A stretch of DNA of 35,914 nucleotides, taken from the IMG/VR virus record IMGVR_UViG_3300035675_000020, positions 1 through 35,914 of that record. One strand, 5' to 3'. The notes below the pieces were generated by a model that did no database searches, was not told where the DNA came from, and saw nothing but the letters and a program-made list of their open reading frames with translations. Positions 31,529-35,914 of the stretch are shown piece after piece (position 1 is the first letter of the stretch; each line of letters starts with the position of its first letter). Position numbers and translations under genes: made by a program. The DNA comes from a virus. Taxonomy: Duplodnaviria; Caudoviricetes.

Positions 31529-31865
31529 AGCAATGGTAGACAGCGCATGCAGCGAGAAGTATACTGAACTCAAGATAGAACTAACGGAACTGCGTGCCGA
31601 TTTCAAGATCGGTATACAAAAGTTGCAATCCAGTGTTGAGGCTATAAAAAAAAACCTCGAGGATTCTCTAAATGCTGACAAGGGATTACATCAAAAGCTC
31701 AAAGAACTCGAGGATCGTATGGATGATGTCGACGTAGCGGAAAAAGTACGAATTGCGAACAGGAAGCTACTTTATGCAATAGGGGGTTTTTTAGGGTTAT
31801 CATCTTTGCCGAACTTCATAAATCTAGTTCAGCAAATAATTAAACTATTTACAAAACAACCATGA
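31506..31865 (+). CDS. Coiled-coil protein with a C-terminal membrane segment (holin/XhlA-like)
   Basis: Coiled coil followed by LLYAIGGFLGLSSL; immediately upstream of the endolysin. Confidence 0.55.
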   Translation: MKTDSQLKAMVDSACSEKYTELKIELTELRADFKIGIQKLQSSVEAIKKNLEDSLNADKGLHQKLKELEDRMDDVDVAEKVRIANRKLLYAIGGFLGLSSLPNFINLVQQIIKLFTKQP

Positions 31866-33219: not shown

Positions 33220-33631
33220 TTATAACGAGCATCCTCTAGCACCTATTGAGGGTGGGGAATATGCCTTTAGCAAGAGATCGCGCGATATCATTAGGCGCCG
33301 CGCAGGCGGGAGGTCTGAACTTTCAGGACGAGTAGATACAGAGATGCATTGTTCCCATATCAATCATAATCATAATAGGCGCGACTACGATTCCCCTGAC
33401 AATGGGCTTTATCTAACTGTTCCGGAACATCTGGCCTATCACCTATTAGCCGTCTGCGATGCCAGATCAATCGGACTCTCCGAAAGTGAAAATAGTTTTG
33501 CAGTCAATACTCTCGCACTTCACGTCCACGATGATGACCGTGCAATCCAACAGGCGCTTGATATGTGGTACGAATTAGACGATCCCCATGAGCTAATCGA
33601 CGATGCTAAATTGCCCGGTGACTGGGACTAG
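33191..33631 (+). CDS. HNH-like protein
   Basis: MHCSHINH...DNGLYLTVPEHLAYH; the usual CxxC is replaced by SELS. Confidence 0.6.
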   Translation: MLYDPETGDDYNEHPLAPIEGGEYAFSKRSRDIIRRRAGGRSELSGRVDTEMHCSHINHNHNRRDYDSPDNGLYLTVPEHLAYHLLAVCDARSIGLSESENSFAVNTLALHVHDDDRAIQQALDMWYELDDPHELIDDAKLPGDWD

Positions 33632-33643
33632 TCAACATACCCC

Positions 33644-33672
33644 TTGACAATTATTCTTCAGTATGTTATATT
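33644..33672 (+). promoter_or_regulatory. Strong sigma70-type promoter (early region)
   Basis: TTGACA-17 bp-TATATT with extended TG; GTCAA-8-TTGAC inverted repeat (33631-33648) overlaps the -35. Confidence 0.75.
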
Positions 33673-33684
33673 GCGTTCAATTGA

Positions 33685-33806
33685 TTGAGCTACGCCAAAA
33701 TCACAGACGATCTCGAAATTTAAGAAGGAATTATGTTGTTAGAATGGCGTTGTTAAGATTTGAGCTGCGCCAATAGCTGCGCAAGACCTGCGCCAAAGCT
33801 ACGCAA
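33685..33806 (+). repeat. Five copies of an (A)GCTRCGC(C)AA motif
   Basis: One copy at 33685-33698, then four tandem copies at 33761-33806 with an 11-13 nt period. Confidence 0.7.
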
Positions 33807-33832: not shown

Positions 33833-34201
33833 ATGAAGAAAGATACTATAACTGTTAACGGGGTAGAGTACATTCGTAAGGATAGCGTACCTTGCCAAGC
33901 TACTAAGCTTGACGGAATGGATTACTGTATAGTACGAACTTACTCCGCGGGTGTATTTGCCGGCTATGTGGAGTCGAGGAACGGGCAAGAAGCTGTGGTG
34001 CGCAACGCCCGGAGAATTTGGTACTGGAGCGGGGCTGCAAGCCTGTCACAACTAGCTGTAGACGGGACATCCGACCCAGATAATTGCAAATTTCCAGTTG
34101 AGGTGGACAGGGTTACCCTAACACAGGTGATCGAGATACTGGATTGCACCGAAAAAGCTAAGTTATCAATTCAGGAAGTACCAATATGGAAAAACCACTA
34201 G
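33833..34201 (+). CDS. DUF6948-like phage protein
   Basis: YCIVRTYSAGVFAG...NARRIWYWSGAASLSQLAVDG signature; family name recalled, not searched. Confidence 0.75.
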   Translation: MKKDTITVNGVEYIRKDSVPCQATKLDGMDYCIVRTYSAGVFAGYVESRNGQEAVVRNARRIWYWSGAASLSQLAVDGTSDPDNCKFPVEVDRVTLTQVIEILDCTEKAKLSIQEVPIWKNH

Positions 34202-34467
34202 GCTCTGGCTATGGCGATGGCAATGGCGATGGCTCTGGCTATGGCTCTGGCTATGGCTATGGCTCTGGCTATGGCTCTGGCGATGGCGATGGCTCTGGCT
34301 ATGGCTATGGCTCTGGCGATGGCGATGGCGATGGCGATGGCGATGGCTATGGCAATGGCGATGGCTATGGCTATGGCGATGGCAATGGCGATGGCTCTGG
34401 CGATGGCGATGGCTATGGCTATGGCGATGGCAATGGCTCTGGTTATGGCAATGGCTCTGGCTCTTAA
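34186..34467 (+). CDS. Gly-X (X=S/Y/D/N) repeat protein
   Basis: MEKPL followed by 44 GX units; overlaps the upstream gene by 16 nt. Confidence 0.6.
   Translation: MEKPLGSGYGDGNGDGSGYGSGYGYGSGYGSGDGDGSGYGYGSGDGDGDGDGDGYGNGDGYGYGDGNGDGSGDGDGYGYGDGNGSGYGNGSGS
34201..34464. repeat. Hexamer tandem repeat GGC(TCT/TAT/GAT/AAT) x44
   Basis: Directly visible; only one unit begins with GGT (34441). Confidence 0.95.
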
Positions 34468-34484
34468 ATTAATAAACACAAAAT

Positions 34485-34652
34485 ATGTTACTATTATCTG
34501 CTCTATGTTTCATAATTTTCGGATATACCACAGGTGCTTATAGCTTCGGCATGCTTATGTTAGGATGCTTGTTGTTAGCTGTATGGATGGTTAGATGTTT
34601 CATAAAAGACGATACTAAAGTGACAGTATGTAAGGCAAGGATTAGAGTTTAA
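34485..34652 (+). CDS. Small two-TM membrane protein (55 aa, absent from the ORF track)
   Basis: MLLLSALCFIIFGYTTGAYSFGMLMLGCLLLAVWMVRCFIKDDTKVTVCKARIRV*; AT-rich leader like neighbouring genes. Confidence 0.55.
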   Translation: MLLLSALCFIIFGYTTGAYSFGMLMLGCLLLAVWMVRCFIKDDTKVTVCKARIRV

Positions 34653-34833
34653 TTATTTAACAGGCAGGTGTGTTGCAACCATAAACCCTTTAAAGGTGGA
34701 GTGGCTCTGCGCAGTGGACAACTCCAGAGAACGGAACCTAAGCAAAACACACGAGGTGACTAAATCTGTTCTTCTCGATATCGAGAACAGGAGGCATTAG
34801 AAGTACAATAATGCCCCTGCCTGTTAGGTAGTT
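34651..34833 (+). ncRNA. Putative multibranch structured RNA of unknown class
   Basis: 18-bp closing stem 34651-34668/34816-34833 with three G-U pairs and no mismatch; several internal hairpins. Confidence 0.6.
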
Positions 34834-34859
34834 AGAGTTTAATTATAACTTAGAAATAT

Positions 34860-35312
34860 ATGAGAGAAATTAAATTCCGTGGACTTACAATTGATGGGAA
34901 GGTTTGGGTTTATGGCTCTTTATTGCAAATTGATTATCATAACTCAATCGATTATGTGATAACTACACAAATTGTTCTTCCTAACTGTCATGAGTATGAT
35001 GTGGATCCAGCTACAGTCGGACAATATTCTGGCTTGCAAGATAAGAATGGTAAAGAGATTTTCGAAGGGGATATTGTCGAGTTTTATATTGATGGAGATA
35101 AAAATGCTGAAATGGCTCAAGGTATAGTTAGATATAGTGAGCGTCGAGCCGCTTTTATGTTCAAAGTGGATGAAATAGTTAGTGTTTTAATTGGATTAAA
35201 TATTCCCCACTCGATTAGCTGCTTTGATGATGCCAATAATTGCAAGGTTATTGGCAACATCTATGAGAATAGCAACCTTCTTGACAAACCAGATACGAAA
35301 ATCCAGAACTAA
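34860..35312 (+). CDS. yopX: YopX family protein
   Basis: MREIKFRG, WVYGSL, VDPATVGQYSGLQDKNGKEIFEGDIV and VIGNIYEN. Confidence 0.93.
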   Translation: MREIKFRGLTIDGKVWVYGSLLQIDYHNSIDYVITTQIVLPNCHEYDVDPATVGQYSGLQDKNGKEIFEGDIVEFYIDGDKNAEMAQGIVRYSERRAAFMFKVDEIVSVLIGLNIPHSISCFDDANNCKVIGNIYENSNLLDKPDTKIQN

Positions 35313-35336
35313 AACCGAATTGATACAGGTGTGATT

Positions 35337-35454
35337 TAGTAGACGTTGAACGCCACTTCTACCGTCTACAAAAGATCTAGTAGACGTTAGAACGTTAGTT
35401 AGTACTTAGACACCCCCTAGGAGTGGGGCAGATCTCCTAGGGTATGTGTGAGTA
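35337..35454 (+). promoter_or_regulatory. Intergenic structured RNA with alternative hairpins
   Basis: TAGTAGACGTT occurs twice flanking a complementary segment; downstream ccctaggag/ctcctaggg hairpin. Confidence 0.5.
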
Positions 35455-35476
35455 TTTAAATTATTTATATTAAATT

Positions 35477-35667: not shown

Positions 35668-35695
35668 TTTACTTTCTACTCTGTAATGTTATAAT
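35668..35695 (+). promoter_or_regulatory. Extended -10 promoter
   Basis: TTTACT-16 bp-TATAAT preceded by TGn; predicted start near 35701. Confidence 0.65.
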
Positions 35696-35700
35696 AAAAA

Positions 35701-35842
35701 TGATTTGATCTGACTGAGTAATAGTGCCTTCTAGCCTTATCGCTGCGTATCGCTGTAGGGGCTGCGTGAATCTAGGGCTTTATCTACGTCGACGTGTTAA
35801 AGCTAATCGCTAGCGGGTTGGAATCCCGTGATCAAGTCACCC
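35701..35842 (+). ncRNA. tRNA-like non-coding RNA (not a canonical tRNA)
   Basis: 10-bp terminal stem 35701-35710/35830-35839 stacked on a T-arm GCGGG-TTGGAAT-CCCGT (35813-35829). Confidence 0.6.
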
Positions 35843-35914
35843 GAGAGTTAATTAGTATGTTGTTAGTGTGGACTGTGGGCGTCGTTTAGTGGGTCGCAAA
35901 TCTTCTTGACACGT

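Follow-up and report, generated by a model that had tools for sequence, protein, structure and literature searches.

What might a predicted short RNA with the top half of a tRNA, and with no anticodon arm, be doing at the very end of a small phage contig? The window analysed here is the whole IMG/VR record IMGVR_UViG_3300035675_000020, a linear sequence of 35,914 bases estimated to be 91% complete, which gives a phage genome of ~39 kb; there is no tRNA gene in the assembled part, and the missing ~9% lies directly downstream of the RNA locus. The tRNA-like element is the last one before the contig end and sits among small early-type genes past the lysis module. We propose, with a probability of about 0.55, that positions 35702-35842 are an early phage small-RNA gene, whose likely product is a stable, non-decoding mimic of the tRNA top half that acts as a decoy or ligand for host proteins gripping that half. 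The locus was divided as follows.

35668 to 35695, plus strand: sigma-70-type promoter-like site with an extended -10 (TTTACT-16-TATAAT, TG upstream; 10/12 matches).
35701 to 35710, plus strand: 5′ strand of the terminal, acceptor-like helix (pairing probability p 0.99-1.0 for 35702-35710).
35713 to 35725, plus strand: weak D-arm-like hairpin, 4 bp with a 5-nt loop without GG or GC, and with U8, A14 and G15 in tRNA register (p 0.3-0.4).
35732 to 35764, plus strand: hairpin H2 in the anticodon-arm position, without a canonical anticodon loop (p 0.3-0.5).
35766 to 35810, plus strand: arm H3 in the variable-arm position, with an apical hairpin at 35776-35804 and a palindromic tip (p 0.6 basal, ~0.9 apical).
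35813 to 35829, plus strand: T-arm with a 5-bp stem and 7-nt loop, carrying U54, U55, G56 (not C56), A58 and G53-C61.
35830 to 35842, plus strand: 3′ strand of the terminal helix in the predicted fold, discriminator-like A35839 and a CCC tail, with no encoded CCA.
35843 to 35914, plus strand: 3′ trailer to the contig end, with no terminator called and a 10-codon frame at 35857-35889.

The 10-bp terminal helix with one G-U pair reported in the initial annotation was recovered at 35701-35710/35830-35839, with pairing probabilities of 0.99-1.0 for the inner nine pairs and 0.73 for the outermost. The T-arm described as stacking on it was also found (35813-35829; 5 bp, 7-nt loop TTGGAAT, no linker to the helix; p 0.62-0.75), with the correction that the first pair of the T-stem is G-U. 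Its loop retains U54, U55, R57, A58 and G53-C61, in agreement with the canonical tRNA T-arm consensus. With a +1 at G35702 the helix has 9 bp and is followed by unpaired A35839 and CCC, so that the reported 3′ end ..CACCC stands as a CCC tail after that base, CCA not being encoded. The acceptor/T stack is 9/5 or 10/5 (14-15 bp), compared with 7/5 in canonical tRNA, and a 7-bp acceptor frame would open with U1-G72 and a paired leader, so no canonical 7/5 stack is present.

The folding energy overall was not better than that of shuffled sequences (z = -0.23, 76/200; second test 69/300), and the signal at this locus is therefore its tRNA-like geometry and not its stability. A descriptor for a T-arm directly on a closing helix of at least 7 bp had a single match in the window, with both strands searched, and in 100 dinucleotide-shuffled windows it gave a mean of 0.04 matches at ≥7 bp and none (0/100) at ≥10 bp. 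It is hardly credible that a hairpin and an inverted repeat came together by chance in intergenic DNA. The ordinary energy would suit such an accident, as would T-loop-like hairpins of identical sequence in coding DNA and in contexts that resemble cobalamin riboswitches, but the motif's failure to appear in the shuffled windows argues against it even with the promoter coincidence not yet counted.

The promoter-like site that the annotation had seen upstream stands (10/12), and its predicted start shifts from about 35701 to G35702, the +1 given by canonical spacing from the -10 hexamer at 35690-95. By the sigma-70 consensus this site ranks second of the 8 between 32600 and 35914; relaxed sites are not enriched overall in that interval (8 found, 7.9 in shuffles). 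The predicted start coincides with the base of the helix. Only 40 of ~35,860 plus-strand positions have a site of ≥10/12 lying 5-8 nt upstream, which sets the coincidence at 0.11% per position.

The predicted fold is a five-way junction of the terminal helix, the weak D-like hairpin, H2, H3 and the T-arm. Next to the inner helix end are U8 and G9, followed by the 4-bp stem 35713-16/35722-25 (p 0.3-0.4), with A14 and G15. The interior had been described as having no canonical D or anticodon arm; the anticodon arm is indeed absent, and the statement needs softening for the D arm, as the D-like hairpin may form at that probability. Among the interior helices proposed, the acgtcgacgt palindrome is the tip of hairpin 35776-35804 (p ~0.9), which is the interior element with good support, while gccttctag/ctagggc would cost 3.5 kcal/mol (p 0.01-0.07) and agc/gct reaches p 0.07, and both were dropped. 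H2 contains an imperfect 10-nt tandem duplication (35736-45/35746-55), which suggests loose constraint on the interior.

A single variant of the RNA was found, on a 526-nt sister contig from run X1 (depth 5.9; 28% of the run read), which comes perhaps from the source sample and is therefore not independent. Its match to the window covers 35686-35775 and includes two substitutions (one listed, C35727T) and the loss of 10 nt at 35736, one unit length of the imperfect tandem repeat. The listed differences are interior only, with none in the 5′ helix strand, over a match that ends before the T-arm and the 3′ strand. The other end of the contig matches 35673-35702, and the -10 part of the promoter-like site is present twice. 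We infer a sister genotype in which ~416-430 extra bases separate two promoter copies and precede a shorter allele of the RNA, and from the duplicated copies, exchangeable promoter cassettes.

Homologues were sought by several routes. Comparison by blastn gave no match among phages and, among plasmids, 9 chance matches of 27 nt, all outside the RNA. In the viral collection, a 21-mer pattern had 0 matches and a relaxed T-loop plus acceptor pattern had 1, unrelated; on inspection, none of the 72 matches to a 15-mer T-arm pattern shared the interior or terminal helix, and none of 17 matches to patterns for the interior palindrome (9) and the gapped closure (8) was related. Metagenome patterns gave 0 and 6 matches and a GTDB pattern 52; among the 20 longest of these 58, none extended beyond 27 nt around the T-arm. 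Through the neighbouring proteins, the upstream 62-aa frame and a 660-aa protein had no relatives, the exonuclease led to one distant locus and the capsid led to 64 loci. Of 65 records (the 64 plus L074), 32 were searched whole and 4 of the 32 had matches, of 14-19 nt only. As no homologue was present in the searched collections, from which the records closest to this one may be absent, there is no covariation for the window RNA. At the level of listings and abstracts the literature held no description of the RNA or its class; a match within the alignments of the viral structured-RNA catalogue (PMC10690425) is possible.

The G56 of the T-loop was followed through the 72 viral loci of the 15-mer scan, several of which are tRNAs called by ARAGORN, also with the G56 variant. 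After filtering for a full 7-bp acceptor, U8-R9 and A14, 12 distinct loci passed (the other 60 failed or were duplicates). A D-loop GC was present in 12/12 of these G56 tRNA-like loci and GG in 1/12; in T4 tRNAs with C56, GG was present in 8/8 and GC in 2/8. Given GC in all 12 loci, G56 is a compensated elbow variant of phage tRNAs and no sign of decay. Phage tRNAs with the swapped elbow pair include L007, L013, L025, L039, L040, L045, L050 and L071, among others. In the window RNA the D-like loop has no GC as a partner for G56; the nearest, at 35726-27, is just past the usual span and reads GT in the sister contig (C-to-T), and position 48 is A, opposite G15.

These features bear on whether the locus is a tRNA pseudogene of the C19-G56 type, decaying or remodelled, enlarged by insertions and now without function. 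U8, R9, A14 and G15 in register, a T-arm sequence common to real phage tRNAs, the single canonical tRNAs of related phages, the orphan status and the interior duplication with its indel polymorphism would all fit such an origin. We consider it unlikely, since a tRNA has a shorter and less clean terminal helix than this one (9-10 bp, one G-U), which begins exactly at the predicted +1, since decay is expected to erode pairs and not to lengthen a helix, and since no Rfam tRNA match was obtained even at E ≤ 10. The non-decoding mimic remains our preferred reading, and we compared it with the known classes of tRNA-like RNA.

As the annotation had foreseen, ARAGORN (without intron search) and Rfam gave no match, and on the narrow stretch Rfam had none up to E ≤ 10; these negative results and the missing class features support an RNA other than a tRNA, tmRNA or Y RNA. 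The anticodon arm of a canonical tRNA (5-bp stem, 7-nt loop, U33, R37) is absent. Taken as an intron-containing tRNA, the RNA has one candidate anticodon stem (p ≤ 0.07) and no anticodon halves, and the Rfam tRNA model does not match it, though it weakly detected the insert-bearing L057. The likeness to tmRNA lies in an acceptor-like stem plus T-arm without an anticodon arm and in a similar T-stem sequence. Unlike tmRNA, the window RNA has no G3-U70 in a 7- or 9-bp frame and no GGGG 5′ end (the only GGGG is internal, at 35758), and it is 140 nt long with no tag frame in the three frames read and no pseudoknots; the Rfam search that was negative here yet detected the tmRNA-like loci L147 and L055. 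As for a two-piece tmRNA, the partner strand of the window T-arm lies upstream, and the 72 nt downstream contain no good partner strand.

Retron msr-msd RNAs have an adjacent reverse transcriptase and a long msd hairpin inside terminal repeats; no RVT_1 was found in the record, whose downstream part is missing, and the fold has no long msd-type hairpin. YrlA is, like the window RNA, a T-arm-bearing tRNA mimic, and some examples are phage-borne; as described in PMC4201824, it is permuted, with the acceptor stem as an internal hairpin between T and D, carries a GNCGAAN0-1G motif and lies ≤4 kb from Ro60. In the window RNA, by contrast, the acceptor helix is terminal and the GNCGAAN0-1G motif is absent, and no TROVE gene is present in the record (91% of the genome; the downstream ~9% is missing). 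Allo-tRNAs have acceptor domains of 12-13 bp (8/4, 9/3, 8/5, 9/4) plus an anticodon arm, and non-translating five-stem members are described (PMC7609411). The window RNA resembles allo-tRNAs and tRNA-Sec-like species in its lengthened acceptor stem, long arm at the variable position and possible five-stem junction (PMC7609411), but differs in its 14-15 bp (9/5 or 10/5) and in having no anticodon arm.

A decoding or charged RNA, whether a tRNA whose insert is excised, a species of the allo-tRNA kind or a ribosome ligand resembling a minimal tmRNA, is very unlikely at this locus. There are precedents in phage tRNAs that share the G56 T-loop and carry ~110 nt inserted in the anticodon arm (L057, L072), in a 59-nt tmRNA-like domain in a related phage (L147) and in the non-translating five-stem allo-tRNAs on record (PMC7609411). 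The window RNA itself, however, is negative by ARAGORN without intron search, has no 5-bp anticodon stem after the D-like hairpin at useful probability (p ≤ 0.07), lacks G3-U70, a GGGG 5′ end and a tag-like frame, and has a 9/5 stack and not 7/5, 8/4 or 9/3.

The closest likeness is to T4. The annotation had called the RNA undescribed, which holds for the sequence and not for the architecture, as this is the layout of T4 species 1 RNA (rnaC; 139 nt, NC_000866.4 70908-71046), in which the two ends pair and two long hairpins come before the T-arm on the 3′ side. T4 rnaC and rnaD (species 2 RNA) share with the window RNA a length of ~140 nt, a 5-bp T-stem and 7-nt loop directly before the 3′ closing strand, interior hairpins and the lack of an anticodon loop, and like it they have no matching Rfam family. 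From the older T4 literature we take mature RNA C to end in CCA. At least 80% of the length of rnaC was covered in 722 of 751 matching phage records, and in three homologues 10 of the 47 consensus pairs carry double changes, including two compensatory ones in the T-stem, with a drifting T-loop. RNA C is expressed and conserved, with no function assigned to it (PMC9697503, PMC12685909). Alignment of the window RNA with rnaC reached a score that 32/500 shuffles also reached, indicating no significant sequence similarity, and a covariance model of rnaC, weak in being built on three sequences, gave no match to it at E ≤ 10. T4 rnaC is counted among the late RNAs, its gene lies within a tRNA cluster in a myovirus of 169 kb, and its closing helix is interrupted. 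The window RNA, by contrast, is solitary and follows a promoter-like site of its own in a ~39 kb phage, with a continuous 9-10-bp helix and a G56 loop. Together, these comparisons suggest that the window RNA is at least built like RNA C and perhaps works like it, without belonging to the rnaC family by sequence. The feature is real, its sequence is uncatalogued and its architecture is known.

Phages with a related capsid or exonuclease were covered by a strict T-arm scan of 85 loci (967 kb, partly redundant). Of the 6 distinct perfect T-arms that it gave, 3 belong to canonical tRNAs and the other 3 to elements that ARAGORN does not call; each of 5 shuffles gave 1. The three uncalled elements are analogues and not homologues, about one of them perhaps arising by chance. 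In L147:1467-1525 (G014), two phage genes flank a 59-nt tmRNA-like tRNA domain with G3-U70 and A73, and without a message part (E = 4e-9 with the Rfam tmRNA model, its score under the gathering threshold); it may be a minimal alanine-identity mimic or an integration-site remnant. The other two are non-canonical T-arm elements on the minus strand, without an ARAGORN call and without an Rfam match at E ≤ 0.1: one closes a 5-bp helix (L148, G006, ~31770-31850), and one lies ~150 nt behind a promoter-like site (L150, G015, ~35190-35350).

Other tRNA-like genes were seen in these searches. L057:392-575 and L072 (~270-450) are members of tRNA arrays, 179-184 nt long with a related ~110-nt anticodon-arm insert, and are missed by ARAGORN. 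L018 (~340-440) holds a 101-nt tRNA-like gene, called by neither ARAGORN nor Rfam, whose variable arm is long and whose anticodon is apparently CTA (amber), and L055:389-784 is a divergent phage tmRNA-like gene with a G56 T-loop (Rfam E = 8e-9, below the gathering score).

The surroundings of the locus are those of a small tailed phage. PHROG matches listed among the 43 frames scanned include an exonuclease, methyl- and glycosyltransferases, terminase, portal, major head protein, tail proteins and endolysin; the assigned genes are on the plus strand throughout, and many scanned frames have no family. Downstream of the lysin are small genes (DUF6948, a Gly-rich repeat frame, YopX) with promoter-like sites and structured spacers between them. 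Promoters in the window are of the TTGACA/TATAAT type, a Shine-Dalgarno-like word precedes only 8 of 42 starts, and relatives of the capsid protein (51-54% identity) carry the assembly labels Azambacteria, Micrarchaeota, Ignavibacteriales and Persephonella; from these labels, the promoter type and the scarcity of Shine-Dalgarno words, our guess for the host is Patescibacteria.

The same region holds further elements. A frame of Gly-Asp/Tyr/Ser hexamer repeats (34186-34467) lies directly 3′ of the DUF6948 gene. At 34640-34846, a very stable 205-nt element has 28-nt inverted arms (79% complementary) that close a branched interior, and it is bounded by a perfect 15-nt direct repeat (34642-56, 34832-46). 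None of 200 shuffles folded as well, no Rfam match was found, and its matches among phages were at chance level only. It may represent another RNA gene, or else a MITE-like insertion that duplicated its target, and its structural signal is arguably stronger than that of the tRNA-like RNA. The stretch 33644-33805 holds the strongest promoter-like site (11/12) and, behind it, a structured leader in which an AGCTRCGC-like word recurs four to five times, possibly as iterons or an operator array. Between YopX and the 62-aa frame, 35333-35465 contains two hairpins and a 15-nt direct repeat, and the hairpin at 35396-35465 is more stable than 200/200 shuffles.

The terminal helix is computed at p ~1 until the transcript passes ~35892. 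In a transcript that reads through, the tRNA-like form gives way to another fold at equilibrium (p 0.18; 0.8 kcal/mol between the two). A rival reading is a cis-acting leader, in which the tRNA-like top would stabilise the 5′ end of an early operon past the contig end, or give RNase P, RNase Z or RNase E a handle for processing it, with the 140-mer as a by-product. We regard this as a serious possibility, although on balance a rather unlikely one. No terminator follows the helix, the record is a linear fragment at 91% completeness, the downstream 10-codon frame has an AT-rich leader like those of other genes, and the other strong early promoter (33644-72) also precedes a structured leader. Against this, a plain stabiliser needs no T-loop consensus, and a TTGACA at 35906 may begin a new promoter, a weak point given 18 copies on the plus strand. 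The trailer also has no specific switch-type pairing: a switch acting through pairing with the 5′ end was rejected, as 129/300 shuffled trailers disrupted the fold equally. An antisense role was likewise rejected, the longest complement of 35702-35842 elsewhere in the window being 10 nt, which is chance level, as is a 12-nt match at 33404.

Under the non-decoding mimic that we prefer, host sigma-70 polymerase would start at G35702, and that start would place the 5′ triphosphate end inside the helix, with no RNase P cut needed. The terminal helix would close co-transcriptionally, and host 3′ nucleases would trim the read-through trailer back to it, perhaps with CCA repair after A35839. Enzymes with an elbow ruler, such as RNase P or CCA-adding enzymes, measure the acceptor/T stack from the elbow, as outlined in PMC4810234, and an 8-bp acceptor stem is noted to lower EF-Tu binding (PMC7609411). 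As such enzymes measure from the elbow and a longer stem weakens EF-Tu binding, the 14-bp stack would likely bind these factors without normal turnover. A sealed 9/5 stack, two pairs beyond the 7/5 ruler, would be poorly processed, charged and delivered by EF-Tu, and could make a durable binder. Our guess is that the target is a defence or stress protein that senses or cuts tRNA and reads its acceptor/T half. The phage answer to tRNA-cutting defence described in 10.1101/2023.03.15.532788 is to supply a working tRNA. Being non-decoding, the window RNA cannot replace a tRNA, so any counter-defence role would go through binding and not through an anticodon loop. The annotation's suggestion of a decoy for anticodon nucleases is unlikely, as no 7-nt anticodon loop is present. 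Speaking against the mimic reading are the lack of covariation, the ordinary energy, the uncertain elbow partner, the missing terminator and the refolding on read-through.

As a single orphan, this RNA is a poor experimental handle, and families with homologues, or T4 itself, are better suited for testing. The RNA C layout in an unrelated sequence, in a small phage and behind its own promoter-like site, suggests that this layout has arisen anew and does not simply come along with tRNA clusters. More speculatively, and with considerable doubt, small phages of this capsid lineage may carry exchangeable promoter-plus-RNA cassettes, in which independently evolved mimics of the tRNA top half (the 9/5 RNA, the 59-nt tmRNA-like domain and other T-arm RNAs) would serve as anti-defence decoys that jam tRNA-sensing or tRNA-cutting proteins and do not replace the lost tRNA. 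If true, such decoy cassettes would form a new class of counter-defence by RNA, and T4 RNA C would have its explanation.
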